Made by a program: the position numbers and the translations under genes. Under the pieces are notes generated by a model. The model saw nothing but the letters and a program-made list of their open reading frames with translations. It did no database searches and had not been told where the DNA came from. From Rhizaria sp. SCN 62-66 (lineage: Eukaryota), in the NCBI GenBank assembly GCA_001724265.1, contig MEDY01000030.1, positions 62,001 through 126,000 on the forward strand: 64,000 bases of DNA, given 5' to 3'. Shown here piece by piece: positions 2 through 64,000 of this stretch (positions are counted from its first letter, which is position 1; each line of letters begins with the position of its first letter).

Positions 2-3000
2 ACGGGCGTTTTTGCATGTGCGCCTGAGTGGTCACGGCCAGTTGCGTCCGACTCAGCTCACGACTCGTACGACGGACCCAACGAGACCACAGGGGGATTG
101 CTGCAAGCGCTCCGGCTCTATTCGCTCTATGCCGGCGCTTACGCGCCCCACGCTCTGACCGCAGACGCCGCGGTTCCTGGCGGTGCTGCGCTTGCTGCGC
201 GCCACAATACGATCCTGGGACCGGTGCGCAAGCGTGACAAGGCGGCTAGTGACCCCGTTAGAACTGCTATGGCAGTCGCATCCGCCTACGGCCGCCGCCT
301 AGGGACGGTGCCTGATCATACCGCTGACGACGCAGCAGCGTCGGCTTCGGCGTCTGGGTCTGTGGTAGTGCCGATGTCGGTGGACGGCGAGGCGACACCT
401 CTCGGTCAGATGCAGGCGACTCCTGTTGCGACGATGACGGACGCGACATCGATGGGCGAGACGGAGGGCGACCGACAGGCAGCAATGGCGTATGCCAGTG
501 CTGCACACCAGCACAAGCGTTCTGTGTCAGCTGCATTCCAGCTCCGGGTGCGCCCCACGCTGCCCTCGTTCAGTGACGTGCTCACTGTCACTGTCATGGG
601 CCTCGAGCTCACCCAGGACGATGACAACAAGGATAACACCGGCAATGCGCAAATCCAAGGCCGCGGGGTGTGGTCCAGTCTGACGAACGACGCGTTCACG
701 CTTGCCGAGGCATCGCCCGACTTTGCCGCAGCTCTGCTGCTTTGCTGCCAGCTCGAGCGTGTCGCACGCGACGCCGCTGTAGCCCGGTGGGCTCAAGTTC
801 CCGTGCTGCTGCGCAACCTCCTCACGCCCGCTGTGCCCGCGACCTGTGCGGCGCTGCCGTCGGCGCTCACGCTCGTGCAAGGCTTGCTGCTATCGGTTTC
901 TCTCGTGGCGACGCCGGAGGATGTCCCGCGCGCGTTCGGTCCTCCATTGACGCGCGTGCACTCGCTGCCACTGTGCAGCTCGCCGGGACTGGCCGGCGCG
1001 GCGTGGTGTACGCTGCAGGCGCTGGCACAGGGCGCGCCGGCGCTGCAGCTGGCGTTGGCCCTGGCACTGTACGCCTTCTCACAGCGGCCGTGGGATCCGC
1101 TGGGTTTCCCTCGTTTTGACTGGCGCGGCACTGACACGCTGTCACTGGGACCGACCCGCTACGTGGGCCTTGTGAACGCTGGCTCGACGTGTTACATGAA
1201 CTCGCTGATGCAGCAACTCTTTATGACCCCTGCGTTCCGCGCCGCAGTGCTTGCTTGCCCCACAGGTGACATCGCCCTGGCCCAGGACGAGGATGGCAAT
1301 ACGTCTGCCCCGCCTGCTGCAGGTGAAGACGGTTGCCGTTCAACTCCCGCCGCAGCTGACGAAACGGAGTGCCTACTGTTCCAACTGCAGGCGTTGTTTG
1401 CGGCGCTGCAAGATGGAACACGGCCGCACCACGACCCTGTGTCGTTTGGTCGTGCGTACCGTGGCTTGGACCAACGGCCGATGAACGTCAACATCCAGAT
1501 GGACGCGTCCGAGTTCTTCTCGCTCATGTTTGACCAGCTTGAGGGCCGACTCAAGGCGCTCAACGCCGCGCGCGCGCCGCGGCCGCCTGTGCCGGACATG
1601 ATGCAGGCCGCGTTCCAGGGCGCGACCACAAACACCATCACGTGCTCGAACCCTGCTTGTGGGCACACGACACTGCGCGAAGACCCGTTCTTCATGCTGC
1701 CGCTTGAAGTCGTCGCTCACGCGTCCGTGCCGCAGGCACTGGACACGCTGTGCCGCGTAAGCATGGACCGCGCCGTGGTGTGCGACCGCTGCCGCGAGCA
1801 GCGGTCCACGCGGCAGCGCGTTACGCTGACGCGACTTCCCATGACGCTCGTCCTGCACTTGAAGCGCTTCCAGTTTAACGGGGAGATCATGTCCAAGGTC
1901 AACACCGCGTGCTCGTTCCCGCTTGTTTTGGATCTCGCACCCTACACGAATGTGAACCGTGAGTCTGACCAGCCGTGGCCCTGTGTCTACGTGCTGGCGG
2001 GCGTGCTCGTGCACTGGGGCCAGATCAACAGCGGACATTACTACTCGTACATCCGCGAGCGCAGCCACCCTAAGTGCCCCGCGGCTGCGCCGTTTGCGCA
2101 CGATCTCGCGGAACGCGCGGCCGCGGGTGGTGCGACGTTTGACTTTATGTCCGCGCTCGAGGCCCGCGTGCGAGCGGAGAAGTGGGTCGAGTTCAACGAC
2201 AAGAACGTCCAGAAGTGGGACATTGATGAGCTCAAGGCGGCCTGCTTTGGTGGTGGCAACGCCGCGCATAGTGCTTACATGCTCTTCTACGACCGCTACT
2301 TAGTCGGGTCCGGTGTGAGTGAAACCGCTCTCGTGGAGCCTGTTACTGCGGTTGTACAAGCGAGTGCGGTCTATCCGCGTGTGCTTTTTGACCGCATCTG
2401 GCAGCGCAACAACTCGGACGCCATCGTGCGTGCACAGTCGTCATCTTCCTGGGCCCAAGCTGTCGTCTCCCTAGCTCACAGTGCGATCGCATGCATTCCT
2501 AAGGCAAATGAACTGCGTATCACCACGTCCAAGGATTTATCCGCGCTCGCCGACGCCCTGACTCTGCCTGAGGCGCCACTGATTGCCGCTGCGAGTCTTG
2601 TCAGTCCTATGACGCTTGCGCGCGGCGCCGCGGCTGTCGACATGGCGAACGTACTCGGTGCCGAGCTCGCACGGTTCCCTGTGGGTGAGGTGACTACCAG
2701 CGCCGTTGCTGTGCTGATAGTGGCCACACTCGCGAAGCTGAGCCAAGCCACAAGAAGCGACTCAAACGAGCTGTGCCAGCTGGCGCAAGAAGAGGCGACA
2801 AACCTCAAGCACTGTGCGATGGCGATAATGTCTCGTGTGCCTGCCGCAGCTGCCGCAGTGCTTGCGGCTGTGGTTGAGAACTTTGAGGTTCACGGCAGTC
2901 CTATCGAAGAGACCGAGGAGGGCGAAGTTGCTCCGCGAGAGCGCAGTGGCAAGGCAGCGTATTGCTGGCTCACGAAGCTGTTCCAAGTTACTCAAATCAG

Positions 3001-6000
3001 TAGCGCCGCACTGTCATTTGCTGCATGCGTTGCACATGCGCTCTCTATCATTGAGCCGATGGAGCGCGTAACGCTCGCCAACTACAACGCCCTCCTGCGC
3101 GCTGAATCGATGTCTGACACGCGCTTCATTTTGCGCAAGAAAGTCGTCGATATTATCGCAGAACGCCTGCCGGGACCTCTCCCGCTGTCGCGGCGCGTGG
3201 TGTCTGCGGTGGTCTCAGTGCTGGGTGCTGAGACACCTCTCAAGAATGAGTGGGTCGGAGGCATGACGTCACTGTGGCATCTTCTGCAACTCTTCGGACG
3301 TCAGTCCCACCAGGCTATGGCGCTGCTGTTCGAGCTTGGCGCGCCCACCATCGCGCTGTCCTGGTCTACAGGCTTCACGTCGGAGCAGTTAATGCTGCCG
3401 ATGCCCGTGCTGATGCCGGCGCGCGGCGTTGGGAAGCCGCGTGCCGTGTACAAAATGGTGCGCCCTCAGTCCTCACGCAAAGCGGGCGACTCTTTGCAGC
3501 AGGTATTGCACTGTCTGCTCGCGGACGTTCTGCGCGCAGTGCTGATGCGGTTGCGACCCCATGCTGATACTGCGGCGTTGCCCGTGCTTGTGACGAACGC
3601 ACGCGAGCTTGTCCACATGTGGCCGCCCACGCTCGCGATCCTGCAGCCCGACTCCGAGCCCGTCGATGAGTCCAGTGCGGCCAACTCGTTGATGACGCAC
3701 GTCTTGGCGACCGCACGTGACCGCGCTGCGGTGACGCTGCTCATCACGGAGCTGTTTGCCACCAACGGCTCTGTGTGCGCCGTGCCCGCGCAGGTGCGTG
3801 TTGTGCTTGATATTGTTGAAAGCGCTGAATACGCGAAGATCGAGCAGGCGAACCGCGTCACATTGCTGCAACTCCTTCTTTTGCCGTACGGTGACGCGCC
3901 GCCGCTGAGCGACGACGCCCCTGGCGCAGCTGCATGGACAGAAACGGCGTGGGTGGGACTGGACCACTCGCGCGCACGCGCCGCGGTGCAGCGTGCAGTT
4001 GCGCTTACTGAGACTTGTCTGACGACGGATGATCTCGGTGGCGTGACTGCGAGTCGGATGGACCTGCTCCTCATGCTTTGCGCCGTTGCCGGTGCACCTG
4101 TGAAAGCGTATTCGACCGCGCTGTCGTCTTCGACTCCTCGTGAGTCGGTCTGTCTGGAGCGTGCGACGACAACCGCGGGGCGCGTGATGCGGGCTGCCGC
4201 GGCATCTCTCGCATCTCAGACGCTAACGTCACGCACACTCACCGCTGAGCTTGATATCGCTGTGGGATTCATGTACAGCCCGGACTTGTTTGACTCCATG
4301 GGAAGTCAGTCAGCGCCAGTGGATGCCAGTATTGAGCAGCAGCGTCTGGCACATGTCATTCGCATCGCTGCCAAGATCCCACCGGTGGATGCGCCGACGA
4401 ACAAGGACCAAGCTGAGGCTGGAGATGACCGTAATCTGCTTCTGTCCGCCCTTTTGTCGTCGGTGAATCCTCAACTCGCGACCCACGCAACGGCACTCGT
4501 GCTTCTGGCGACTGCAACAACGCCGGTTGCGAATGGTGTTGTCGCATGTCATGACAACAGTGGACTGTGGGCTGACATAATGGTCCAGACACCCTTTATC
4601 GCCGTGGGTGTGGCATTAGCGGCGGCAGACAAGGCGTATGAGTCCCGTCTAATCTCACCTGTTGGTGTTGATGCTGGCGCTGACGTGACAGCAAACCTCC
4701 TCAATGTCTTCGCCGTTGCGCGGAAGTCTGTGCTATGGTTTGCGACCTGTGGTGTGCTTGAAGCTCTCAGTTGGGTTCAAGCAGCAAGGCCTGTGCAGAC
4801 GCTGCATATGTGTAAGTTGATCATGACTGCCTTAGCAGGCGCACCTGCCTCCGTCGTTGACCGATTGCGCGTGCCGTGGTTGATGGGGATGACGACGGAG
4901 TGTATGTTTGCTTCTGCAACCACGGCTGATGCCGAAGTCGTGATGATGCCTGTTGCCGCTCTCCTTGCGTGGGCACTTCTTGGCACCAGTAACTTCCTCC
5001 GTCCCGTTTACAACGAGCACAAAAACTTCGCGCATATCACCACCTTTCTTGACACCCCTTTCGTCGTCTCGCTTGATGTCAGTGATCACGTCGGTGCAGA
5101 GATCGGGATGCAGACGTTTCAGTCAGGCTCCTCAATGTTTGTGCTAAGTTCGCTTGATAACGCCGTGGCAGCGCGCCTGGGAGCCGACGCTGCGCATCAC
5201 GCCGACTCCTCTGCAACCACAACTGCAGCGCTCACCGATAGCCAGATCGCTGCGCGCGTGGCGCATCTCCTGGCCGAGAATGATGTTTTGGCCAACGTCG
5301 TCAAGTCTGTGCGAGCTGCGCCGGATCCAAACGGGCCACTACCACTGCAACTGGACGTATACGCAGCGTCCGTCTCCGCTGTTCTCGCACTGGCTCTCCC
5401 GTACGACGACTCGACTTTGCAGCTGCTGCAAGCGTCGGACGCGGCCCAGGCGATGGGGGAGTCGGCGGACGTCGGAGGAGCACGTGGTTACCTCACAGAC
5501 GTGGTGCGCCATGAGACCATCTTGGCGGCGCAACGTTCAGAGGGTTACCGCCCGGTTCAAGCCTTGGGGAACTTTCTCCGTCTCAGTCTCTGTCCGCTCA
5601 TGCGATCGTTTGCGGCACTCGAGCCCTCACAGCGCACGTTCGTGTTCGCGATGCTCTGGCCTCGTGGCCTGATGCAGTGTCGCGATGTCATGGGGGAGTC
5701 CTCAATCGCAGTCACACTGCTCGCTTTGCTTGGCTCTGCTGATCACACCACACGTGTTGCCGCTCTCACGCCTGCTCTTTTCGGCAAGCCGCGCGACAGC
5801 ATCACGAAGGCCGTGCCGGTTTCTGAGTTCAGCGGCATTGTGGACATGATTTCGTACATTGCGGCGCGTTCCTCGCTTGAGCTGTCTGGTTTCCTAGATC
5901 TCTCGCGCCTTGGCTCCTTTGCCTCGACGCTCGTCAGTCAGATTGCATCAAGAAACTTCTGCATTGGGACGCATAATCCACAATGGCCATTTCTGACAAG

Positions 6001-9000
6001 CTTGTATCGTCGTGATGCTCCTATCTTGCTTGTGGCGGGTGTGGCGGCCGCGATTTCTGCCGTTGTTGCCGACATGAACACGTTTCCAGGTATTCTCAAC
6101 ATCAGCACCAACTTCAACAATGCACTTCCTCTCACTGTGGCCGTGGGCGAAAACAGTGAGGACGTCTTGGGGGAAGTGTTGAAGCCGACTGACACGATAT
6201 CTGAGCATTGTTCCCATGGAAACAAGCCTCTTCCACATCAGTTGACGTCGTCGCAAGCGTCACGTGCGAACAAACTTGCTGAAGATCTCACGCGTACAGA
6301 TGTACGCAAGATGGCTGAACCGATGCTTTGCATGCTGCTTCCTTTGCCGGCGCCGCTACCACATATTTCTCTTGTGGCCAGTCCGAATGCCAATTTGAAC
6401 TCGCAATATGCCGTCCAGTATGCGCTTAAGAATCATCCGTTTGTCGTCAACAGTCAAAATTTACAGGTCTTTCTTAACTTTGATTGCGCATTGGAAATGG
6501 CGGCGCAAATCGATGTCAAAAGCCCACCTGAGCTCTCTCGACCTACCTCCCTCTGCTATTCCTATGTACAGTCTCCAGCTCCTATCAATCTCCCACAGTG
6601 TAAAGAGGCCTATCATGCGCGGCTGTTAGGAGTTAATGCAGCATCCGTTACGAAGGCGCGGCTGTCTGTCACACATGCTTTCAAGGTAGCCCTTGACTCC
6701 GTGCGCGCAGGCGCTGTGCCGAAAGACAATGCGGATGGCAATATTCAAACCAAGGTCATGGCCGCTGCTGAGGAGTTGTTTGGTTCAGGCACTGACTCGT
6801 ATTTTGACGGTGACGACAAGTACTCACTTACTCAACATCTCGCGGCGCGCTCTGCCTGCAATGATGCGGCAGCGACCCTCATAATCGCGCCCGCATTTTC
6901 ACGATTGATGAACACCGTGCCCCTGGTGCTCGCGCCCTGGCTCTGCGGTGCTGTGCATGCGCAGCTCGAGGTTGGACTCGATATCTTTCTGTCTCTCAGT
7001 GAGCATGAGACTCAACAGTCGAGGGCGCCCTGGAACATGCTGCATCCTACGTTGATTAACCCATTGCTGCGCAGCGTGGTTCCTTCTGAGGCGTTGATTG
7101 CGCTGGCTGCCGACGCACTCGAACTTGTCGTGCGCAAACTTCCCGTCGGTGGTATGCTTAAGCTGTGGCCTGTGAAGCCTGTTTTCCCGTTCACTCCACT
7201 CGAGTCAGCTGCCGCGATGCCGGCTATCACGACTGATACTGCCGGAGCATCCGCCCAATCTGCTGTCAACGGCGGTGAGAGCTCATTTGCGACTGCCGCT
7301 CTGCGTGCCTACACCAACGTACGCACCGCGCCGCTGGCAGAGATCGCGTACGAGCTCACAGCGCAGCTGCTGCTATTCAGTATGGTTTCAAGCACACCGC
7401 CGCAGTTGTCGGCGATGGCGTCTAATGCCATGGCAAGTGTGCTCTCACGTTGGTCCGGCTCAAACTGCACAGCGGAAGAGACATGCAACAACCTGCTTCT
7501 GTTGCTTAAGTCAGAGCGCGTGCACGCGCGTGCCGCCGGACTCAGCAAGCTTGCTGCTGCGGGTGACGAGCTGGCCAAACGCTTCCGCACCGACTGGGCG
7601 CGCGTCTTGGCGGCGCCAACGCGCCTATCGGGCGCCCTTCATACCAGCGACGCGCCCACTGTGGCGGCGCTCATCGGACACGCATCGCAGTTCTTGACGC
7701 CCTTGTGGTCTGTCTGCCCGCTTGAACGCGTCCCTCTGCCGCTGCAGCTGCTGGGCTATGTGGCTCTGGGGAACCCCTTGCTGGCCGCAACATCATTCGT
7801 CAACGAGGTCGTCCAGCTGTGGCTGCCGCGCTTTGCTCTCGCCCTGCTGTCTGGCGACGTCACCCCGCTGGTTCCCTTCTCCCGCTCAATGGACGATGTG
7901 AACGAGGCCGACGTCGAGGCAGCCCCCCGGCGCTGCGCCCTGGTATTCAACGTGTTCTCAGACATTGTGAAGCAAGTCGAGTCCGTGCAAGTCGACAATC
8001 TCCCCAAGCCGCAGTGTCAAGAGAGCGCTGCTCCAGAGGAACTTGAGGCCGAAGCGCTCACGCTGGCTCAAAGCACCGAGTGGGCGCATGCGCTGGGCTC
8101 AGTCCGTATGCTGTCGGCCGTTCTAGCGCCCGCTGCGGCTCAGCAGGCTGAGGAGCCCAAGGTCTCGGTCAACCCGTGGCTGTTGTGCGTGCCGCGCTCG
8201 CAGGTCGAGCACGCCCTGGCTGTGGCCGCCGCCGTCGGGCTTGCGGCCGGTTCGGCGCTGAGTGATGTGCACGGTGACGGCCCCGCCTCGGTGGCCGCAC
8301 GCGTGCTGTTCAGTGCCGTGAGCGACGCTGCGCACCCGCACGCAGACCTGGAGCAGTGGGCGCTGGAGGCCGCCGGCGCGAGCGGAGAGCTCACGCGCGC
8401 GCTCGCCGCCACTAAGCGCGACTGGACTCACAGTGTGCAGAACGCCCGCGATCAGGAAGCTGCCGCCGCTCAATTGCAGTAGCAGCAACAGCACCAGCAG
8501 CAACAACAACAGCAACAGCGTCGGGGTGGCATCGACTTTCTGTTGTCTGCAAGTGAGCGTGTTGCAATGGGTGGCGGCGTGGATGTCCGCTCCCGGCGCG
8601 CGCGGCGATCAAACGCCGCAGCTCGTGACAACAGTGAAGACTACGTTGAAGTCGACGATGACGAAGAGGAGGCCGATGGCGATGATTACGAGGGCAAGAA
8701 CAACCGCCACATGGGTGGGTCCAAGCGCGCACGCAAGGCGTCGCAGGCGCAAGCGGCACTTAGAGATGTTGGTGTGGTGAGTTTGGGTCCCGACGGAGAC
8801 GGTGTGTATGCCGGCAACGAGGAGGAGAGTGAAGAGTACGACAAGGAGTATCGCGCTAGTCGTGGCAATGATGGCAATGATCGACGCCGGCGCCCGCAGC
8901 GTCACAAGCAGGCTCCACAGCAGCGTCGCGATGTTAACTCCCGCGGCTGTGGCGACTGTAACGATGGTGGAGAAACCGGCACTCAGCTTTCCATGAGCTC

Positions 9001-9892
9001 TGAAGACAATGTGGCGCGTTATGCACGCGAAGCTCGATACGACCGCGATGTTCTTGCTGAGCAGTTTGACCGGCTTGAAGCGCAGATGGTCGAACTTCTC
9101 GTTCGACGGGACGACGCCAATTCGATTAATAATGTCGGCTTAGCCCAGAAGCTGACTGCCGAAGTGAATGAGCTGGAAAAATTGCAGGTTGTCATTGCGA
9201 GTGCACAGAAATTCTGTCATGACTCAAAGCGCGGGCAGCGCGTCACGCGTCACAAGGTTGCCACAGATCCCGGATCTGGCTCTGATTTCGTATACTCTGG
9301 CACGGACTCCGTCTCTGGTTCCGAAAACAAAGACGGCGACAATGAGGACGACGACGAGGACGACGGCGAGGACGACGATGACCTCGTGATTGTTGCCAGC
9401 GACAGCACCGATGGCGTCGGCAGCTCCTCCGCCTCCGCATCCGCCTTCTCTGGCAAGACGAGCGCGCGCAGTGACTTGTTTGCTGTCCGCGACGGCTCCG
9501 AGCAGACCGGCGGCCGCGGGCGCCGCAGCAGCGCCAACAAAAGAACTGCTCCGGAGCCCCCTCTTGCGGGGCCCCGTGGACGCTGGGACGGTGGCAGTGT
9601 TGGCAGCGGCGGTAGCGATAACCGTGGCGGCCATGGCATGCGACGGCGGTCCGCGGCGTCGCAGAAGCATCGGCGGCGGCGCGGGGCGCGGCTGCAGGAC
9701 TTTGTGGGCTCGGATGACGACGATGAGCAGAGCGGCGACGCCAACGACGACGACTACGACGACGATTTCGAGGAAGTTTGGGATGATAGCAACAACGCCA
9801 ACAGCAACAACAGCGACAACGGCAACGATGTGGACGAACAGGAGGAAGAGGACCTGAAGAGGGCGCTTCAGCTGTCGCTTCAGGATAACTAA
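2..9892 (+). CDS. Large ubiquitin-specific protease (peptidase C19, USP9/24/34-like) with a C-terminal UIM; 5' end lies outside the window; one in-frame TAG at 8480-8482
   Basis: The frame is open from base 2. Cys box YVGLVNAGSTCYMNSLMQQLF (~1160-1222), QMDASEF, LVLHLKRF, His box GVLVHWGQINSGHYYSYIRER (~2000-2062) and WVEFND are present. ORFs 98..8482 and 8543..9892 are in the same frame and separated only by a TAG inside a poly-Q tract. The protein ends EEEEDLKRALQLSLQDN-TAA (UIM-like). Confidence 0.9.
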
Positions 9893-16600: not shown

Positions 16601-17770
16601 GCGAGCGGCGACTCCCCGTGTCCGACCGCCGCTGGCGACGCTGAGGCCGAGGCCGTGCCGCCCGACGCGTTGCTGTACCTGTTCCAGGACCGCGGGCTGG
16701 GCCCCGGCGTCGCGGCCACGCTTATCTGCGCCAACGTCGGCGACTCCACGGCGTGCTGCGTCACGGAGCCGCTGCCAAAGGCCAAACCGCTGCTCCTCGC
16801 ACAACGCGCCGCCGCGGCGTCAGCAGCGACGGCGGCAGCCTCCGCGACTGGCAACGGTAACGGCACTATGGCCGCCGCCGTCGCCGCCGCCGCTGGCGCT
16901 GGCGCTGCTGCTGGCGCTGCTGCTGCTGGCGCGGTGGCGGATGACCCGTGGCTGGTCCCGCGCCTGCTGTTCCTCAGCGAAGACCACGGTCCCGACAACC
17001 CTCGCGAGTACGCACGCGTGATGGCGCTGCCGGAGGACACGCACCCGGTGAAGCTGCTGTTTGTGTACGACCGCCGTGACGCCGGCGCGAAGCACCTGTG
17101 TCCGCGCGTGTTCGGCCCGGATGGGCAGCTGGATCGGCGCATCCTCGCCAGTCCGTGGTCGTTTGGGCTGCATCCAACCAACGTGCGGCAAGAGCCCGCA
17201 GCATACGCTGTGACGCCCGCGGGCGTGGGCGTGGACGCGACGTGCATTGCCATGACGCGCGCACTGGGCGATCTCTTCTCGCACCAGTTCGGGCTCACCT
17301 GGGAGCCGGCGATCTCGGTGACTGATGTGCCGGTGTACTGCGCGTACACCGTCTGCGTCGCCTCGGACGGCGTGTGGGACTGCTGGGGCTACCCAGACTG
17401 GGCCGTGGCGACGATCACGCTCGTAAAGAAGCACACACGGCAGTGGCACAAGCGCGAGCGCGAGCTGGAACGCGAGCGCGGCGCGGCGGCGGCGCCGACG
17501 GCCTCGCTCAGCGGCAGCGGCAGCGGCGTCGGCTGCAGCCCCCCCGGGTCCACCACCGGCGGCGGCGGTGTCGTCGCAGTGGCGTCGCCGGTACTGCTAA
17601 CCCGCGCGGCGGTTGAGGGCGCGGCCGTGCTGCCGCCGCAGCCGGACGTGGCCGCGCAGGCCGGTGCGGGGCTGATGCAGATGAGCCACGAACGCGCGGT
17701 GCAGAGTTTCGGTGCGCGTGGGTATGACGACAGCACGCTCGTCGTCTGGCACGGTGACGCGTATGTCTAA
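11012..17770 (+). CDS. PP2C/PPM-family Ser/Thr phosphatase with a very large low-complexity insertion; exons 11012-11116 and 11252-17770; in-frame TAG at 11321-11323
   Basis: ATG at 11012 gives MASPLGGP...TFAQG, followed by a phase-0 GTACGT...TTTTCAG intron (11117-11251). Exon 2 reads LTRVP...GPKQHQ[TAG]DSSVFW...GVFDGHGG. The later PPM motifs HGGTTA, ANVGDS, SEDHGP, MTRALGD, VASDGVWD and DDSTLVV occur in order. The gene ends in TAA. Confidence 0.88.
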
Positions 17771-23824: not shown

Positions 23825-24838
23825 TCATGCCCATTTGAACGCCTTTGCGTGGAGCTCCTCCCACTCCGGCATAAACGCAGTGAGATCAAGCACAGGCACC
23901 GGCGCGCCCAGCTGTGCAAGCGCGGACGACACCTGCCCGCGGTGCCATGTCGCGTGGTTCAGCACGTGCGTCAACAGCGCCATCCGCGTCCGCGAGTACG
24001 TCGTCCCGGCAGTGTCGACGTACTTGACTTTCTCCAGAAACGCAGAATCGGGGAGCCCGCGGACAAGGTCGAGCCAGTCGTTGTTCTGGTCGTCGAGACG
24101 CATGCCGATGGCATTGCGGGCCTTTTGCGCCGACATCTGCACGTCCACAGAAAGCTCGATCGGCACCACGCGGAGGGATGACACGCCGACGCTGTAGGGT
24201 GTCTCCGCGCCGGTGGCGACGGAGACGGCCTGGGCTGCGGCGGCTGCGGCGTCAAAGCCGGCGCCAGAGCCCGACGCGGACTGAGTGTTAAACGGCAGCG
24301 GGCGCGCGGCGGAGCTGGATGCATTCGCGTGGGAAGAGGCGTTGTTGGGCGCGCCGTGGGGGGTGACGACGGCGGCCTTGGCGGCGGCGGCGGTGCCAGC
24401 GGAAGGAGCGAGTCCGGTGTGCTGGGACACGAAGTGGTTGGCCCAGACGGCGGTGGAGTCGTTGGCGGACCACATGTTGGAGAGCTCGGTGGGCACGGTC
24501 TGCCCCGTGAGGCGCATGAACCACAACTGCTCGGCGTAGTAGAGATGACACAGCGTGCCGTGGATACTGCCGCAGGGGAGGCTCAGGTCACGCATATAAG
24601 GGTGCTCGGCCGCGAGCTGCGCGGAGGACACGCCGCCGTCGGCCAGAGCATCGAGCGCGATTTCGCGAGGGGCGGGCGCGTGGACGGACGTCGTGGCGGG
24701 GGAAAAGATGACGGGAACCATGGCTTGGCGGATGGGGCGGAAGAGGGGATCGTCCAGCACGCCCAGACTCGTCAGCATGCGCCGGGTCGCCCAGCGGTGG
24801 AACTGCGTCATCATCACAAAGTGCGTGCGCACGGACAT
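23825..24838 (-). CDS. DinB/YfiT-like (damage-inducible DinB family) putative metalloenzyme, intronless
   Basis: N-terminal FHRWATRRML, GSIHGTLCHLYYAEQLWFMRLTG and C-terminal LLTHVLNHATWHRGQVSSALAQLG..PVLDL carry the His...HxxxH triad typical of DinB proteins. The start is taken as ATG 24838 (MSVRTHF). The gene ends in TGA. Confidence 0.85.
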   Translation of the reverse strand: MSVRTHFVMMTQFHRWATRRMLTSLGVLDDPLFRPIRQAMVPVIFSPATTSVHAPAPREIALDALADGGVSSAQLAAEHPYMRDLSLPCGSIHGTLCHLYYAEQLWFMRLTGQTVPTELSNMWSANDSTAVWANHFVSQHTGLAPSAGTAAAAKAAVVTPHGAPNNASSHANASSSAARPLPFNTQSASGSGAGFDAAAAAAQAVSVATGAETPYSVGVSSLRVVPIELSVDVQMSAQKARNAIGMRLDDQNNDWLDLVRGLPDSAFLEKVKYVDTAGTTYSRTRMALLTHVLNHATWHRGQVSSALAQLGAPVPVLDLTAFMPEWEELHAKAFKWA

Positions 24839-25331: not shown

Positions 25332-28300
25332 ATGGAGCACATCGGCACCTACACGGGCGCCGAACTGCTTGTGCGCACGGACTTTGGTGAGGAGATTAAG
25401 GTCCCGCACGGCGCGGGCACGTATACTTACCCCGACGGTCACTTCTCGCTCGAGAGCGCCAACTGGTCCCACGGTCGTGTCACTGGCCACGGCACCCTGC
25501 GTCTCGGTCCCCAGCCCTCAACTTCCACCACCGACGCCACTGCATGCACGACTGACGCCACGGGCGCGCGGTATACCGGCGACTTTGTTCGCGGTCAGAT
25601 GACTGGCCAGGGCGAGCGCGTGTGGGCCGACGGCTCCGCCTACCGCGGCGGCTTCCTCCGTGGCGAGCCCCACGGTCCAGGCGTCTGGGCGGGCGCGCGC
25701 GCGGGCGAGCTCTACCAGGGCGAGTTTGCGCATGGACGCCGCCACGGCCCGCGCGCTGTGCTGCAGAGTGCGGATGGATCGGTCCACGCTGGCGGGTTCG
25801 CCGATCACCAGCGCTCGGGTTTCGGTGCTCACATGTACGGCCCAGCGCCGCCCGTCGCACTCAACACAATCACCCCTGCCGATCTGCAGAGCGCCGCGGG
25901 CAGTGATGTGGCGGCCAGCGGCGTGGGCCGTGCGTCGGCCGCGGGCGAGTGGGCTGCCAGCGCGCTGGTGGGCGCCGGAAACGCCGTCGCAGTGCCATTC
26001 ATCATCAGCAACAGCAGCGACAGCCACAGCCACGGTCACAACGGCAATGCCGCTGATGCCGGGAGCGCTGACGCTGACGCCACTGCTGCTGGAACTGAGT
26101 GGCAGGGCAGCGCGCTGCTCGTCGGCACTACCTGTAGCAACTCGCAGGCGCATGCGCAGTGGCAGCCGCAGGCGCAGTAGCAGGCGCTGATGCACAGCTC
26201 TGCCGCCATCTCCTCCCGCGCGCCCCGCGCTCCCGCCACTGCTGCTCCTGCAGTCTCCGGCGCCGTATACGCTCAGCGCGCCCTTGTCCCTGTCCCGGGG
26301 CCGGCCCCCGCGTCCAGCACTGCGAATGAGCCTGCTGCGGTGACCGCGGCGGTCACCGCCGCGGCGGCTGCAGCGGCCGCTGTGGCCGACGGTGCGTTCG
26401 TGCTCACGACGCACACGAGCGCGCACCGTGGCGCCGCGAACGAAACTGAGGGCGAAGGCGACGCTAGTTTGCGCGTGCTGCTGCCCCCCGCGCTGCCACC
26501 TGCGTCAGCGCTGGCGTCCGCAGTCTCAACCACCGGTCCAAACTCTGTTGCGTCTGTTTCTGCGGCGGTCTCAGCGCCTCCGCTGCCGCCGCTGTTAGAA
26601 CTCGTGGCCCGCCGTTACGCCACGCTGCACACACTTGCCACCGCGGCCGCCGTCGCTCCACCCGCCGCCGCGACCGCCGGCGCCGCCGCCGCAGCCGCAG
26701 CCTCAAACGCGTCCGCCACTGCGACTGCTGCTGGGACTGCTCTGCCCCGGCCGACGTCCCCCGCCGCCATCGCCGCCGCTGCGGCTGCCGCAGCACCGCC
26801 CGCGCTGCCCGCTTTCGCACCGCTGCCGCTGCTCCCGCTGCTGAGCGCGCGCGCGACGGCCGCCGCTCTGTGTGCGGCCGCGCACTTGCCGCATTTCGCG
26901 CGCGCCGTGGCCGCCGCTTCCGCCGTGGCCGCCGCAGAGACCGCCGCGGCTGAGGCAGCGGCCGCGAGCAGTAACGTGCGCGGGGGGCCCCGGACGCAGC
27001 GCGCGGCTCTGACAGAGGCTATGGAGCGCGCGCGCGGCGCGTGGCGCGGGTCTGACCCCCGCATCCGCCTGAGCGCGCACGCGTACGCCGCCGTTAACAC
27101 TGATGCTGAGGCGGAGGCCGTGGCGGACTGGGGCGGGCAAGCGCTCGCGCGTCCCGCACGCGTACACATCGCCGCTGCCGCTGCAGACGAGTCAAGCCTC
27201 GGTCTCGCGAGTCCCGAAGACGACTTCATCGGCGGCCGTGATGACGACAGTGGTAGTGCTGCGGTGCTGTCCCTACGGTCGCCCGCGCTTGAGGCCGCGC
27301 TGGCCCTCGCCGCGAGCGCACAGCAGCAGCAACTGCAGCTGCCGCGCGACGCCCCCGCGCGCTCACGCATCGCCGTTGCTGCCGCGCTCGCCGCGTCCCT
27401 CGCGCTGCTGCCCGCCGGCGCTTACGCTCCCTCCGCCGCCGCTGCTGCGGCCGCGCCGGCGCCGGCTCCGCTGCAGCGCCAGCCGTCCTCCGCTGCGATG
27501 GGCCTCTCGCACCCCGTGACGCCGGTGCGCGGCTCCGCAGCCGGCGGCGGCGGCTTCTTTGCCAGCCCCGTCGCCGCCACACCAGCAGCGAACGCAGCAC
27601 TCGGCGCCGCCGCCGCCGGTGGTGGTGGGAATGCGCTCCCGCTGCAAACGTCTGCGCGCGGTGGTGCGCGGCTCTCGACCACGGCGGCCGCTGCAGCCGC
27701 CGCCGCTGCGGCCGCCGCTGTGCCGCCGCCCGCGCTCACGCTGCCGCTGGGCGCCGAAGTGCTTTACGGCCGTTTGCTCCCGCTCTTTGTCGCAGTGCAG
27801 CGACCCGTGCGCAACGCTGCCGTCTCTGTACGGGGTCCGCCCGCGGTCGCAACGGCGGCGAGCACGGCGCAGGCGCTGTGTGCAGGCGAGAGCGGGCGTT
27901 TTACGGCTTTCTCGCTGCTGCCGCCGCTGCCCGCGCTTGTAGATGAAAAAGAGCGCCGCCGCCGTGCACCGCTGCTCGCCGCGCTTCTGGGCGCTTTCGC
28001 CTCGCCCGCCGTCTTCGCTGACCCTGTTCCCGCCTCGTCATTGTCCTCAGCTCCCGGCATTGGCGCTGGTGCCGTGGCCGGTGCGTCTGGCAGCGCTACA
28101 GCCACAGCCGCTGCCGCTGCCGCCGCTGCTGCCTCAGCTGCTGCTGCGGCGGCGGCGGCGCGGCCCGAGGCTAGCGAAGGGACTGTGACGACTGAGGCGC
28201 AACTCGCAGCGCTGACAGACCGGCGCGCGGCCGCGCTATGCTCTTGCCCGCGCCAGGCGGGCTCCGTGCTGCGCGCGCGCGTGCTAGCGCTGCTGTTCCA

Positions 28301-31300
28301 CGTCCACGCGCAGACGCGCGCGCTGGCCACGGCGCCGCTGCCGCCGGCTGAGATCGAGTCCTGGGGCCGGCTGCTTGCCCGCGCGCGCTTCATCGCAGCT
28401 GCCGACGCCGCGCGCGCCACCGCGCCCGCCGCGGCCGCCGCGCTTGCCACGGACAGTCACAACCGCAACGGCGCTGATAACGAGCGTGGTTCTGACGCCG
28501 TGACCGTGGCAGACGTGCTGTGGCTGTGCTCTGGCGCCGGCGCTGTTCACGCTGCGTCTGCGACCGTGAGCGGACTGACCGACGCGTCCGGTGCGTCGCT
28601 GGGCCCCGCCGCCGCGATGCCGCTGCGAAACGCCAACTCTGCACTTGCGCCCACGGACGTTGCGTGGCTGTTGCGGCACGGCTTTGCCGACGAAGCAGAG
28701 CCCGAGACGGAGCCTGAAGACGCGTCTGCCACCAGCGCCAGCAACAGCGTGAGCGCAAACGCAAGCGCAGCGCCGAGCCGCGGTTCGAGCCGTGCAGGCG
28801 CACGCGGCTCTGGCAAGGCGCTGGCCGGGCTTCTCGCGCCGCCTCCGCCTTTGCCCCCGTTGGCCGCCGCGCAGACCGCGTCCGCTGCCCACGCGCGCAC
28901 TCTGCGTCTCTCTGCTTTCACTGCAGCGGGCGTTGACGCAGGCTCGCGGCTGGCGGTGTCCTGCCCCGCTGGCCACTTGCCGTCGGAGCGCGCGCTGCTG
29001 GCCGCGACGTCCGTGCCCGCGGTGCCGTTGCTCGCGCTGCTACTGACTGACCCAGTAGTGCGCGCCGCACTCGGTGGCCGCGCGCCGCTCTCACTCGCCG
29101 CGGTCCAGGCCCTGCTGACCGCCGCGCTTGCGCACGAACGCGCGCTCCGCAGTGCGTGCACCGAAGTCAAGCCGCCTGTCGCCAACGCGCTCTCGCTGCT
29201 CTCCGCGCTGTGCTTTGAGGCAGGGCTGTTGCGCGTGTTTTCGCTCGCGTCCGACGCAGCTGCTGTTCCTGCCACTGGTGGCGTCACTGGCAGTGGCGCG
29301 GCGACAGGTAGCTCGAGTTCAGGCACCAGCTCAGGCGTGGAGAAGGCTGCGGCTGCCGGTGGCGCGGCGGCTGCAGCGAGCGCGGCCGCTCTCGCCCCGC
29401 TTAGCCCCGATGCCGAGCCGGCGCGCTACCCGCTGTCGCCCGCATTTGCCGTCCCCGCGCCCGCTGACGCCGCTGCCGGTGCGATCACGATGCAGCCCAC
29501 GCCCGCAGCCGCAGTGCTACTTGCCAACGCACTCGCTGCTGGGTCTGCCTCCGCGCTCTCGTGGCTGCTGCCTGTCTTTGCCCCCGGTGGCGCGAACGGC
29601 AACACTGCGAGCACTCCGGCGAGCGCCGCGACTGCGCCTGGGGCTTCCCCGCGGCGCGCGGCGGGCGCGGCAAACACGTCCGCTGCGGCCGGCGAGCACG
29701 CTGCATTGGTCGCCGCCGCCGCCGCATCTGCCCGCGCCGCTGCGCTGACCGCTGCCCTGCGCGGCGCGTACCCTGCGGCTCTCGCGCCGCTGTCTCCGTT
29801 GCACGCTGTGCTGGCCGCGCGCCTCCCGGGGCTCGCGCCCGCCCCCGCTGCGCCTATGCCACAGCCCGCGACCGGCCCCGCCGCTGCGCGCGCCGCCCGT
29901 GCCGCCGCTGCCGCGACGCCCTCCAACGGCGGCAACAGCGGCGGCGCTGCTGCTGCGCCCGTTGCGAGCGCGCTCAGCGGCGGCAACGGTGACCGTGTCT
30001 CCGCCGCCGCTGCCGCCGCCGCAGCGACCGCGGCCGCGGCGCTAGTGGCGCCCGCGCTACCGTGGGGCTGCTTGCGAGGCCGTGAAGTCTCCGCTGCAGT
30101 GCTTACGAACCGTGCGCTGCTGCTGGATCTCGAGTGCGCGGCCACACCGTTGCACGCAGCTGCGGTGCTCTGTGCGCGCTACGCTGTGCCCGCGCCGGAG
30201 GACACTGCTGAGGCTGCTGCGACGATCGGCGCCGGCGCCGGTGCCGGTGCGCAGCCGCTTGCAAGTGGTGCGCATGGGCACGGGCACGGGCACGGGCATG
30301 CTCCTCCTGCGTCACCCTCGATGTCTTCCGCTTCTTCATCGTCATCGTCATCGTCGTCCTCTTCGTCAGCGACTTCTGCTGCGTCTGCGGCCGCGGCTGT
30401 GACAGCACTTGCCTCGCAATGCCCGCTATCCGCGCGCGCACAGGCGTGGGTGCGCGCCTCAGCCTCTGCGCTCCTGGCCGCGTCTGAGGCCGACACGGAG
30501 GCTCTGCTGCCCGCGCGCGGCGCCGGTGCGCTGGCGCTGGTGCCGCTGCCGGCGTCACCGTTCTTCCCAACGCCTGCGCCCGCTACCACGCCCGCTGCCG
30601 CCGCCGCCGCCGCAGCCACCGCGGCGGCCGCCGCCGCCAACGTCAGCGCTGCGGCCGCACTCGACACTGTGGCCGCCGTCGGCTCACTCGCGCTGGCCCC
30701 CACGAACGCACTGGGCAGCGCCGCGCAGGAAGCACTGGCCGCGGCGACAGTGCTGGCCGATCTCCGCGTCGGCGCTGCGCTGCACTTGCCGCCCGCTGCG
30801 GTGACCTTGGGCAGCGCTGGCGGCGCGGCGGAGTCGATGCTCGCGCTTTACCGCGAGCCGCTGTTCCCGGCAGCCGCGCTGCCGCAGCCTGCGCCCGCGA
30901 GCGTCGCGCCCGTTCCCGGCGACAGCAAGGCGACGCCGCTGGCCGCCACAGCAGTGCGTGGGCGGTTGCAACGCTCCGACTCTGGCGCGAGCGCTTCTTC
31001 TGCTCCCAGTGCCGCGACTGCTGGCTTGTCCTTGGCTGGCGGCGTTGCTGCGGCTGCGCAGACGGCTCCCGGCTCCGCTGCCGCCGCGGCAGCCGCCGCC
31101 GCGGTGTCCGCTCGCGGCGACCTCGGCGGGCGTCTGGCGCTGGCCGAGGTTGCCCGCGCTACCGCGGCCGCTGGCGACTGTCACGAATGCACCGGCGGCT
31201 GCTGTCGGCTGTCTGCGCAGACGACGAGCCCGCTCGCGCTTGCATTCCCGCTGCTGCTGCCCGCGCTGCCCGCACCCGCGCGCGCGGCGGCGTTGCTGGC

Positions 31301-32817
31301 CGCTGCGGCGCCCGACGCGGCGCAGTCCGAGGCCCTCGCCAAGGTCACGCGCGCTGGGGCCGTGCGCGCGCGCAGAGGCTCTGTGGCCGCGTTTCCGCCC
31401 ATGCCGCCGCTCACGCCCTCCGCTTCTGCTCCCGGTGGCGCCGTGGGCGCTGCGGAGGGCAAGGGCAAGAGCGCGGTGTCGACGGCGAACGCGGCTGCCG
31501 CGGCGGCTGCTGCGACTGCTGCCGCCGCGCACGCCGCCGCAGCCGCAGGCGCTGCGGCAGTGGGTGGAGGCGTGGTTCAGATCGTGCCCGCGCCTCCCAG
31601 CACCAGCCCTGTTACGATCACCGCAACCGCAACCGCGACTGTGAGCGTCACAGTGACTGTGAGCTCATCAACAGCCAAGACCACTAAGAGCAGTAGTGAG
31701 GCGGAGAGTGAGCCGACGCTGGCGCTGCTGCGGTGGGCTGTGGCGACAGACCCGGCGCTGGCGCGGTGGGTGGCTGCGGCACGGCTCAGTCTGCTGCCGG
31801 CGCCTGCTTGGCCGCTCTGGGCTACGCTCGCTACGGCGGTCACGCCCACGCGCCACGGAATCGCGAGTACGTCGATCTTTCTCATAACATGATGAAAATA
31901 ACTGTTTTTAAATCAAATTGCCTCTAAATGAACCGCCATCGTGCTTATATCTTATGTTTCTTTTGTTTCGTCGTATTTTCTGTTTGATAGCCCCATTCAC
32001 GTTCACGGAAGACGCGTCTGTGCTGCTGCCGCCGCTGCCCCGCAGTGTCGCCCAACACCTCGCGCGAGTGCTTCCCGTAGCCGCCCACTCTCTCCCGCTG
32101 CTGCGCCCGCGCCCGGCGCCCGTGCCACTCGCCCCCGCGCCGCTGCTGCTTGCCACCGTGCCCGCCGCCGCCTCCGTCTCTGTTGCCGCGCCGGCCGCGG
32201 TCTCCGGCGCGCCCGGCGCCTCGTTCTCCTCGAATGGCTCTGGAGCCACGAGTACTGGCACTGGTGCAGGGCCGTCACCCACCGCTGGCGGTGCCTCGGC
32301 AGCGTCAGGTGCTCTGGGATCGCCGGTGCGCGCCGTGGGCTCTGTGGCGCAGCAGCAGCAGGCCGCCGTTGCCGCCGCAGCTGCGGCCGCAGCAGCCTCC
32401 GTGGCCGCCGCAGCGCAGACGACTGGGGCGGGTGGTGTTGGTGACGCAGCGCAAGCGCGTGCGGCTGCGCTGAGAGAGCTTCCTGCTGGCGCTTTTGGGC
32501 TACTGCTCATTGATGACGTAACCCCAGCGTCCCACAGCCACTCCGCAACCACCCCCGATAATGGCAGTAACCACGGTCGCAGCAAGGGGCAAGCGCCGCC
32601 GTTGTGCGAAGTCAAGCGTCGCGCCGCTGCCGTCGGCCGCGGTGGCCACGGGTCTGACGAGCTTGAGTGGCCCCGTGTAACGGTCGTGGAGCGCGCGCAT
32701 GGCGCTGCGGTGGCACTGGTGCCGTCGCCGCTTGCCCGCGTGGAGCCGCCTGCGCAGATACGCAGGGGAGCGCCGCGCGCGCCGATGCCTGCGCCGCCCA
32801 AGGCCGTCGCCGAGTAA
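25332..32817 (+). CDS. MORN-repeat protein with a long Ala-rich C-terminal region; exons 25332-31866 and 31991-32817; in-frame TAG at 26178-26180
   Basis: MORN repeats: PHGAGTYTYPDG, YTGDFVRGQMTGQGERVWADGSAYRGGFLRGEPHGPG, YQGEFAHGRRHG, HAGGFADHQRSGFG. ORFs 25308..26180 and 26190..31892 share a frame across CAG-TAG-CAG. A phase-1 GTACGT...ATAG intron (31867-31990) joins in frame to the 31918..32817 ORF. The gene ends in TAA. Confidence 0.72.
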
Positions 32818-40351: not shown

Positions 40352-40843
40352 ATGGCTGAGTTCGCTAACAAGGTGTCGTTCATCGGCATTATTGGCGACG
40401 AGGTACGCACCCACCCCTTTTTCCCGCTTTTTTTTCCCTCGCCCCCTGCGACGTAACTCCGCTCACCACTCTTGTTTCCTCCTTCCCGTTTGCCCCTGCG
40501 CTTCGTTCCCTCGTTCCCGCTTTAGGACACCTGCACGGGTTTCCTCCTCGCTGGCGTTGGCCACCGCGACAAGAAGGTTGGCTCCAACTTCCTCATCGTT
40601 GACCCCGAGAAGACGCCCAAGGAGAAAATCATTGAGTTCTTCAAGGGCCTCATTGCCCGCAAGGACCTTTCCCTCATCCTCATCAACCAGCACATCGCCG
40701 AGATGATCCGTCCCACGCTCATCGCGCACACGGCGCCCATGCCGACTGTGCTCGAGATCCCCTCGAAGGAGCACCCTTATGATGAGGCGAAGGACCCTCT
40801 GATGATCCGCGTCAAGCAGCTCCTCGGTAACCCCGACGATTAA
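40352..40843 (+). CDS. ATP6V1F: V-type H+-ATPase subunit F (V1); exons 40352-40402 and 40526-40843
   Basis: Splicing of a GTACGC...TTTAG intron (40403-40525) gives IGIIGDE|DTCTGFLLAGVG...NFLIV...ILINQHIAEMIR...VLEIPSKEHPYD. The gene ends in TAA. It is missed as a unit by the ORF track. Confidence 0.95.
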
Positions 40844-41191: not shown

Positions 41192-41878
41192 TCATGCGTA
41201 TTCAGCCTGTGCGGCCGCGACTTCCTCCATCTCCTTGCGCGCGCGCAGAACAAGCTCCGCGCGGTAATACGCGGCCAGCGCGCGCTCGCGGTGCTCCGCG
41301 GCGGCCGCGGCGGGGAGGCGGCCGACGACGCGGGCGGGATTGCCGGCTAAGATGGAGAACGGGGGAGCGACGAAGCCATCGGGTACGCGTGCGTGGGGCA
41401 TTACGCGGACGCAGGAGGCCAAAACGGCGCGGGAACCGACGACCGCGTCGTGCATGACGTGGCAGAGCGGGCCGAGCGACAGGGCCTCGATGACGCAGCC
41501 TTCTTCAACTATGCAGAGGTCGCCGACAGTCAACGGTGCGTGGACCACAGTTCCATCCGGTGCAGTCTATGAACACGGTCGCAAAACGGTATTCGACTCG
41601 ATGAGACAGCCTTCGCCGATGGAGACGGGCGCGAGGTCACCAATAATCTGCGCGTTGGGCGCAATGACGGTATGGCCGCTAGTGCAGGTGACGGAGCCGG
41701 TGATGAGGGACGGGACGCCGATGTGGTTCAGCGACTTGGTGCTCATGTAGCTAGCGCTCGCTTCACCCGCAGAGAGAAGGACCTGGGAGAAGGAAGAGTC
41801 ACGGGAAGCGAGCGGGCCGTACACCGCCAGCGGGGGCGGGGCAAACTCGAACGCGCGCGGTGCGTCGCAGCTGTCCAT
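41192..41878 (-). CDS. DCTN5: Dynactin subunit 5 (p25), left-handed beta-helix; in-frame TAG at 41569-41567
   Basis: GHTVIAPNAQIIGDLAPVSIGEGCLIESNTVLRPCS[TAG]TAPDGTVVHAPLTVGDLCIVEEGCVIEALSLG...VVGSRAVL...VAPPFSILAGNPA is colinear with p25 (GKTI...IIRGDLANVRVG...VIRPP...PLHIGDHVFIEEDCVV...VVPPFTVFSGCPG, recalled). The gene ends in TGA. Confidence 0.85.
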
Positions 41879-42376
41879 GGTGCGATCTGCGGTGTGTGGT
41901 AGTGAGGGGAAGAGAAGAGCTACGCGAAAGGAAAGGGAGTGGAGCACGACGGCGTTGTCGAAGAGATATGAAAGGGTGAATTGGACCTGGAGATATTTTC
42001 CGAAATAAAATTGGTCATTCAGGAGTTGTTTAAGTCTGAAAGCGACTTGCAGGGCAATCTGACAAATGTAAGACATCGAGATGGCTTGGCAAAGTTGAGT
42101 GTTTCTGGCATGGGCTCCTTCGGCTCCAAAAATCGGGGCGAGGCCAACAGCCGCAGACGTTTTGGCGCGCGACTCGGGGGGCTCCTTTGCCGAGATATTG
42201 TGAGTCACCCCATAAGTTTTAGAACATATAATTTGTATATCAAACACACATTCTACTTATCTCTTTGTAAAAACTTCTGCACCGGTATTGACGGTGTATA
42301 TCTCTCTCCCCAGCCTTTTTTCTCACGCTACGCGCTTTTTTGATCTCCCTGCTCTTTCGCTTATCAGCCGGCTGAG

Positions 42377-62700: not shown

Positions 62701-64000
62701 CATACCGCCGCGACTGGCGCTGCTGAGACGGCCACGGAGTTTACGCAGACTCACGCGTACGCCGACGCAGCGCGTGCGCCCAACGCAAACGCTGGACTCC
62801 CACTTTAGCGGCCCTACAACTTGCCCAGCCACCAGCGTTCACAGTCGCTTTCTCACGGCAACACGAGCAATGCGGCAGCCGCCGCTGCGGCGGCCCAGGC
62901 CGCGGCCGCTGCACTGCGCTCACAGTCTCAGCTCCCGTCGGGGTTACACTCGCAACTACACTCGATCGCGCCCTCGCCGGCCGTTTCCGCCTCTGCCGCC
63001 GTCGCGCCCACCGTCGCCGCGACGGCTGCGGTGACTGAGGCGCCGTCGGGCACTGCGGCGCTGGACGCGTTTCTGAACATGAACATGAACATGAGCCAGA
63101 ACGTGAGCGCGAACATGAGCGCAGCTGCAGGGAAAGCGAACACAAACGCTGCTGGGGGCGACGGAGCTGTTCTGGCCCCGCTCGTGGCAGCTGCACTGAG
63201 TCAGCTGCAGACGCAGCAGTCGTTGTTGCTGCACGTGTTGGAGCGACAGGACCGCATTCTACTGCCGAATACTGCCGCTAGCGTGAATAACACTGCGCAC
63301 AATACGGTGGTTGAGGCAGAAGTCAAGCCGCATCTGCTTCAGGTTAAGACACCAGTAAAGGAACGCACACCTGCACCCTCGCCCAAAGCACAGTCTTCAT
63401 CTGTTCACGCATCCCCTGCTCCTGTCGCGGTGCCTGCTGTCGCTGACGCACGCAGTGCAAAGCTGTCGCTGCCGCTTCCGCTCACTCCGGCATCTGCATA
63501 CGCCTTTGCACACGGCCATGACAGCAAGCGTAGCTTCAACTTTGCACCTGCACCTGCTATTGCTGAATCGCCCGCTGCGACTGCTGCTCCGGCCGCGCTC
63601 GCAGTGCCCTCGGCTCCCGTCTCCACAGCGCCCTCCCCTAGGGCCTCTGCTTCCCCAGCTGCTGCAGGCGCGGCGACACAGCCAAACGCTGCGGGGGGCC
63701 GGCCGCATCACCCTGCGTTCCGTTCCCCTTTGTCGCCTTCAGCGGCTGAGCGCGAGCGCCAGCGCGACCGCGAGGAGCAGCTGAGGCTGCAACAGCTGCA
63801 GCAGCTGCAGCTGCAGCGTGCCGGCGACAGCGAGGAACAGAGCTCGCGGCTGCAGAGTGACCGCGAGTCTGAGCTCGGCGGCTTGACAAGCGACGACGAA
63901 CGCGGCCAAACTTTCCTTGCGCTCGTCGACGATGACGTTGCTGACTCCAGTGACGACGACGCTTACTCGCGTTTTGCTCGCAAGAATGAGCCGCGCAATG
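59761..64000 (+). CDS. Coiled-coil, low-complexity protein of unknown function; in-frame TAG at 62806-62808; runs off the window end
   Basis: ATG at 59761 marks the AT-to-GC transition. There is a long E/R/A heptad-like region at ~60840-61945. After the TAG the same frame stays open for the remaining ~1190 nt with the same Ala/Pro/Gln-rich codon style. Confidence 0.75.

Follow-up and report, generated by a model that had tools for sequence, protein, structure and literature searches.

Is the codon UAG read as an amino acid in this organism and, if so, as which one? The question is raised by a gene for DCTN5 (dynactin p25) that carries an in-frame TAG and lies in a 64,000-nucleotide stretch of Rhizaria sp. 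SCN 62-66 (GenBank assembly GCA_001724265.1, contig MEDY01000030.1, positions 62,001 to 126,000 of the forward strand). This whole stretch is called the window, and positions given without a contig refer to it. Searches were extended to the organism's own genome (G000; 34.9 Mb in 714 contigs), which is GC-rich and has GT-AG introns, mitochondrial carriers and many dynein heavy chains. Codons, tRNA and release factor are all visible within this one genome and, taken together, they make it likely that UAG is a sense codon of the nuclear code, encoding mainly Glu, and that UAA and UGA still serve as stops.

The DCTN5 gene

The DCTN5 reading frame runs on the minus strand from an ATG at 41878 to a TGA at 41192. 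A first-pass annotation, made from the letters of the window, had described two half open reading frames (ORFs) of DCTN5 with a TAG in frame between them, and this TAG was found at 41569-41567 with the quoted flanking residues present. The upstream half, drawn to 42247 in that annotation, is too long by about 370 non-coding bases; the closest DCTN5 homolog found, P0122 (73% identity), begins where the ATG at 41878 does. The identification of the gene held, since the joined product of 228 amino acids matches the Pfam family DCTN5 (PF21711) over residues 42-193 (E 3.6e-25, 89.1 bits, cut-off 40) and its best solved matches are DCTN5 chains (E 1.4e-24), in an alignment that spans the TAG. Opposite the TAG, in the loop after RPP, the solved chain has Lys and P0122 has Glu, and this loop is otherwise poorly conserved. 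About 40 extra N-terminal and about 35 extra C-terminal residues distinguish this product, and also P0122, from ordinary DCTN5; in other respects it is an ordinary member of the family.

The same annotation had held that the TAG lies neither in an intron nor in a pseudogene, and both views were borne out. Removing any one of the eight frame-keeping GT..AG spans (up to 120 bases) that contain the TAG would cost the beta-helix conserved residues, and none of these spans begins with a donor resembling those of the eRF1 introns. A search of G000, in which six candidates were scored, gave one DCTN5 match only and hence no second copy, and the gene and P0122 agree at 70 of 100 aligned residues upstream of the TAG and at 88 of 123 downstream of it. 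A different base in other reads was also looked for, using the four sequencing runs X3, X4, X5 and X7 and leaving out a possible source run, X1: contigs of X3, X4 and X5 span the TAG with at least 31 letters on each side and show no difference. Run X4 represents another strain, as its differences from the window elsewhere show. The DCTN5 TAG is most likely an ordinary amino-acid codon.

Run X4 also contains pieces of a related species (records 10-14), about 80-88% identical to the window at 41409-41598 and 40601-40836, which include part of DCTN5 and diverge around the TAG loop. In public gene calls (P0258, P0299, P0123), SUV3 of this organism is split and DCTN5 is cut at the TAG.

In-frame TAG codons and gene ends

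Ten genes of the window, comprising 17,463 codons, contain four internal TAGs and neither an internal TAA nor an internal TGA; the nine complete ones end with TAA (three genes) or TGA (six genes) and never with TAG. In-frame TAGs were found on both strands, as had been proposed, and genome-wide (Table 1 lists those of the window). Among 142 protein kinase matches in G000, nine had TAG only, one TAA only, none TGA only and four mixed stops. When opened, the nine TAG-only matches gave five coding TAGs and four intron ends, and the sole TAA-only match was intronic; no in-frame coding TAA was found in the window genes or in the opened kinase matches.

Table 1. Positions of the DCTN5 gene and of in-frame TAG codons in the window
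Feature	Position	Strand	Remark
DCTN5 (dynactin p25) coding sequence	41192..41878	-	228 codons + TGA, intronless, single copy
In-frame TAG, DCTN5 codon 104	41567..41569	-	loop after RPP-like motif; Glu in P0122, Lys in solved mammalian chain
In-frame TAG, Gln run of 3,207-codon ubiquitin C-terminal hydrolase gene (269-9892)	8480..8482	+	frame runs 470 more codons to C-terminal UIM
In-frame TAG, Gln-rich stretch of MORN-repeat gene (25332-31892)	26178..26180	+	
In-frame TAG, long low-complexity ORF starting 59761	62806..62808	+	

A coding filter applied to about 0.8 Mb of G000 counted 37 TAGs, a few of them doubtful, in 215,210 codons, which makes TAG the rarest codon counted (CAG 6,999, CAA 1,025, GAG 8,876 and GAA 1,263 in the same count); as a sense codon genome-wide it is very rare, at about 1.5 per 10,000 codons, and extrapolation of the count predicts some 1,000-1,500 coding TAGs in G000. 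In this 0.8 Mb, 29 TAGs follow long coding stretches, and behind 24 of them the DNA is again coding-like. The frame runs on behind two of the other five, by 120 codons in one case and by 470 in the other; the remaining three stand just behind a GTACG splice donor and are read as introns, so that no TAG gene end was found among the 29. Non-coding-like DNA follows TAA in 63 of 76 and TGA in 47 of 66 cases, some of these being stops inside introns.

Conserved, single-copy genes that are intact and have an in-frame TAG are DCTN5, eRF1, UBE2J1, SUV3 and kinases. Searches of the ABC, SNF2, UCH, mitochondrial carrier, Ras, helicase and kinesin families, in which matches with mixed stops mostly fell outside the opened set, provided one usable site (SUV3); the other opened TAG-only matches were intron ends, save one in a poorly conserved insert of UCH. 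Dynein heavy chains (11 genes) were tried as a further source of conserved sites and rejected, the dynein-aligned TAGs being intron ends and none clearly coding. Eight dynein heavy-chain frames (L086-L105, L116-L117), with about 37,000 codons, contain no coding TAG (P ~0.002 at the mean rate); TAG use is therefore uneven, and the codon is avoided in long conserved genes. A DNA pattern for Gln tracts (270 matches) was uninformative, because runs of Ser, Asn and Ala in other frames give the same letters. On the minus strand of G000:C30 (about 17650-17665, L122), a span of four codons contains three TAGs, in sequence that was counted as coding; they probably lie upstream of the true start.

The amino acid at UAG

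Three conserved genes allow the TAG to be compared with an ortholog column. In eRF1 (120 homologs) the column has Glu in 111, Asp in 5 and Gln in 1; in UBE2J1 (120 homologs) Asp 47, Asn 32, His 17, Ser 15, Glu 6 and Gln 0; and in SUV3 (148 homologs, two fragments of the organism's own having been dropped) Asp 86, Ser 11, Thr 8, Glu 8 and Gln 6. The log2 sums over the three columns are -6.9 for Asp, -8.7 for Glu, -19.0 for Gln, -22.0 for Lys and -24.3 for Tyr, Leu and Trp, so that Glu is ahead of Gln by about 10 bits; Leu and Trp are absent from all three columns. The Glu of P0122 opposite the DCTN5 TAG also speaks for Glu. When the scores of Pfam models were summed over six sites, Leu, Tyr and Trp reached 370.6-373.4 bits (Trp lowest at 370.6, Leu 13 below Glu), and these scores exclude all three residues. 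Alignments with kinases in PDB have Lys and Tyr at the kinase TAG site, and at three more kinase sites Glu, Lys and Gln are tied on Pfam.

Several of our results weigh against Glu and have to be set beside the columns. Asp is slightly ahead of Glu over the three columns, although Asp lies two base changes away from TAG, is a poor fit to the eRF1 column and disagrees with the tRNA described below, and just one of the TAG columns is more than 90% conserved. On the six Pfam sites, Glu (383.9 bits), Lys (383.7) and Gln (382.7) are tied. Both TAGs found genome-wide in acidic tracts are in frame and in themselves favor Glu, but about seven would be estimated there if TAG were used as freely relative to GAG. 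For the neighbours of 34 TAGs the log-likelihood (lnL) is +6.1 with Gln and -3.4 with Glu, and the best fit is a mixture with 40-50% Gln-like sites (lnL +10.9). Several TAGs lie within Gln runs; Gln makes up 8.6% of residues within three positions of a TAG, a share that lies between those around Gln codons (12-17%) and around other codons (about 4%). A divergent ubiquitin-domain copy has TAG where the four other ubiquitins of this organism that cover the site have CAG. These results are nevertheless compatible with Glu: TAG arises from CAG by a transition, and in disordered tracts a Glu in place of Gln is a mild change.

A tRNA gene with a CUA anticodon

One tRNA gene with the anticodon CUA was found, at G000:C84:76008-76080 on the minus strand, as one of the 24 matches to a relaxed pattern; two stricter patterns missed it. 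ARAGORN reads its anticodon as CTA, the Rfam tRNA model aligns to it at full length with a score of 58 bits, all four stems being paired, and a run of T follows the gene. The cloverleaf rests on this alignment, since the minimum-energy fold does not give one (z -1.5). The contig C84 also bears kinase and kinesin genes of G000. The label 'Pyl' given by ARAGORN follows from the anticodon; tRNA-Pyl has atypical structural features, and the present gene fits the ordinary tRNA model over its full length. A second CUA candidate, on C618, turned out to be no tRNA.

Among the distinct tRNAs recovered, an incomplete set consisting of the 63 scored out of 506 Rfam candidates together with pattern matches, the best match of the CUA tRNA is tRNA-Glu(CUC) (47 of 73 positions identical, score 68); the next scores 51.5 and Gln at most 30.5. 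The first five acceptor pairs are equal in the CUA tRNA, Glu(CUC) and Glu(UUC), and G73 is common to the CUA tRNA and Glu(UUC), whereas both tRNA-Gln have G1-C72 and U73 and tRNA-Asp departs at acceptor pairs 3 and 5. A search with a 5'/3' pattern matched only the CUA gene and eight copies of Glu(CUC), with none in the control, and a DNA search with tRNA-Gln(CUG) returned five copies at 99-100% and no variant. The CUA tRNA has no long variable arm. It carries U11-A24, U13-G22 with A46, and a four-base variable loop, which are Glu determinants in E. coli (PMC9976931); these features are partly common to other short-loop tRNAs, and the rules are bacterial and may differ in eukaryotes. We infer that the CUA tRNA probably descends from tRNA-Glu, and it would then be charged by glutamyl-tRNA synthetase (GluRS) and insert Glu at UAG.

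The release factor eRF1

G000 has one eRF1 gene, the other Pfam match being pelota. In human numbering, GTS is changed to GSS (Thr32Ser; Thr in 59 of 60 homologs) and TASNIKS to KASNIKS (Thr58Lys; Thr in 120 of 120), and Gly57, present in 117 of 120 homologs, is changed to Ser. Thr32 bonds the G of UAG, and the eRF1 of Iotanema has T32G (PMC5304391; PMC9161772). In human eRF1, T32A causes a shift towards UGA, and T58 touches adenine or RNA (PMC3384315); T32A is lethal in yeast (PMC4381064). T32S and T58K may abolish the recognition of UAG.

The N-domain of this eRF1 itself holds an in-frame TAG (L032:1594-1596 on G000:C63, minus strand), whose presence in a gene this long would be expected by chance in roughly 7% of cases. 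The TAG is kept in a metagenome contig, L125, that is identical to G000 over 1,626 bases and may be of the same strain. A metagenome search for eRF1 gave 32 loci, one of them identical, and the eRF1 changes were found in no close relative among the 19 that were translated. Directly after the eRF1 TAG stands the rare Lys codon AAA, in a gene otherwise strongly codon-biased. At four metagenomic loci, which do not belong to G000, tRNA genes with a TTA anticodon lie about 1-2 kb downstream of eRF1 (L140:11904-11977, L152:10497-10571, L154:10740-11149, L155:11817-11890), a release factor thus standing beside an ochre-reading tRNA.

Proposed mechanism and alternative explanations

In the mechanism that we propose, a CUA tRNA derived from tRNA-Glu and charged by GluRS would put Glu at UAG, while changes in eRF1 would weaken its reading of a third-position G. 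DCTN5 would be made at full length with Glu104, and the TAGs of Gln runs would have arisen from CAG by transition, disordered regions tolerating the resulting replacement of Gln by Glu. There is a modest chance that something further operates on top of UAG = Glu in a barely used codon read by a single old and diverged tRNA-Glu(CUA), either an ambiguity between Glu and Gln, or a TAG in the stop-reading domain of eRF1 that would tie the output of release factor to the balance between the tRNA and residual termination at UAG.

Mixed decoding, in which the Glu-derived CUA tRNA would be charged by both GluRS and glutaminyl-tRNA synthetase and UAG would be tolerated only where either residue suits, is in our judgment unlikely. 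It would account for the mixture that fits the neighbour context best, for a Glu-type tRNA body combined with many sites in Gln runs, and for a codon that is extremely rare and missing from the dynein frames; amber suppressors of E. coli made from other tRNAs gain Gln through U35 (PMC9976931). CAG-to-TAG mutation under pure Glu reading would, however, also yield a mixed context, and the TAG of eRF1 is kept at the column dominated by Glu. That UAG simply encodes Gln, as in Iotanema spirale and as the first-pass annotation implied, is quite unlikely, although the enrichment of Gln around TAG, the CAG of the ubiquitin paralogs, the better context likelihood of Gln and a change at Thr32 that parallels Iotanema (PMC5304391) would agree with it. 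Gln is found in 1 of 120, 0 of 120 and 6 of 148 homologs at the three conserved sites, the sole CUA tRNA found is Glu-like, and no variant of tRNA-Gln(CUG) turned up; because tRNA and conserved sites both point to Glu, the implied Gln is probably wrong.

We regard it as very unlikely that UAG is a leaky stop that the CUA tRNA suppresses in part, giving short and full-length products, with the eRF1 TAG as a feedback element. The rarity of TAG, its absence from dyneins, the single copy of the CUA tRNA gene and the TAG followed by a rare Lys codon in eRF1 would suit such a stop, but no TAG gene end was found, the sites are without a common readthrough context, and truncation would halve DCTN5, eRF1 and SUV3. 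An artefact is scarcely credible, whether it be an assembly error, a pseudogene, a hidden intron or adenosine-to-inosine (A-to-I) editing of UAG to a Trp codon. It is true that no RNA contig bridges the DCTN5 TAG, those of the polyA run X7 reaching 41669-41891 only, which counts against our reading also, and that many TAGs inside other family matches are intron ends. Against an artefact stand the same base in three other runs, the metagenome contig with the eRF1 TAG, an intact single DCTN5 that is equally conserved on either side of the TAG, and the existence of a CUA tRNA gene; editing to Trp is opposed by the lowest Pfam score and by the absence of Trp from the three columns. Glu remains the reading that we prefer.

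Lineage and other observations

The lineage of the organism leaves the reading of the code unaffected and decides whether its origin is independent. The named homologs are all distant. The organism's own ubiquitin (L198, L199, L202) has an extra Met-Ser at the start and several differences from the usual sequence, and no polyubiquitin junction was found in the G000 assembly; the additional Ser, which precedes the point where ubiquitin usually begins, only recalls the junction insertions of Rhizaria (PMC3014934). The TAG-bearing ubiquitin domain (L197, G000:C681:2900-3500) forms a fusion with a chaperone domain of the Peptidase_S74 family (E 4e-09), perhaps of viral or mobile origin. An 18S rRNA match (G000:C706:4459-8903) covers 4.4 kb for a model of 1,831 positions and therefore contains large insertions or introns. 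Between eukaryotic genes of the window, a DinB-family gene lies on the minus strand at 23825-24838; this family is mostly known from bacteria.

Comparison with known genetic codes

If true, UAG = Glu with two stops would be a further variant of the nuclear code. In the literature searched, which was mostly open-access and without supplements, UAG = Glu was nowhere found alongside UAA and UGA as stops, and term searches within PMC12440015, PMC13746701, PMC3014934 and PMC7980591 yielded nothing on the code. The case offers a direct test of the eRF1 residues that read a third-position G (Thr32 and Thr58) and bears on the engineering of amber codons in eukaryotes. TAG is so rare here that whole-genome checks of the code could miss it; since it is rare, and since public gene calls cut SUV3 and DCTN5, other assemblies may conceal cryptic codes of this kind.

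The meaning of UAA and UAG nearly always shifts jointly, and few nuclear codes separate them (PMC5304391, PMC11687900). UAG = Glu is found together with UAA = Glu in peritrich ciliates and Blastocrithidia (PMC11687900, PMC5304391), whereas we found no in-frame coding TAA in the window genes or the opened kinase matches. Oligohymenophorea sp. PL0344 likewise has UAG = Glu and CUA tRNAs nearest to tRNA-Glu, but its UAA is Lys, UGA is its sole stop and its CUA tRNA genes number 10 (PMC10553269); here many genes stop at UAA, and the search gave one CUA gene.

Codes in which only UAG is reassigned have been described with Leu (the rhizarian exLh and three TARA phyllopharyngean ciliates), Gln (Iotanema, Hartmannula and Trochilia) and, as cited, Ser (Scotinosphaera) (PMC5304391; PMC11687900). 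In exLh, the TARA ciliates, Hartmannula, Trochilia and Scotinosphaera, as in our case, UAG is sense and UAA and UGA are stops, and in two of those ciliate genomes the CUA tRNA comes from an existing isoacceptor, as is proposed here (PMC11687900). The present case differs from the UAG = Leu codes in its low Pfam score for Leu, the absence of Leu from the columns and a CUA tRNA that lacks a long variable arm. With Iotanema spirale it has in common that UAG alone is reassigned, UAA is a stop and Thr32 of eRF1 is changed (PMC5304391; PMC9161772). In Iotanema the amino acid is Gln, the eRF1 change is T32G, and the evidence is a transcriptome only, with a tRNA predicted but unseen (PMC5304391; PMC9161772), whereas the organism studied here has a Glu-type CUA tRNA, T32S together with T58K, and a very rare TAG.
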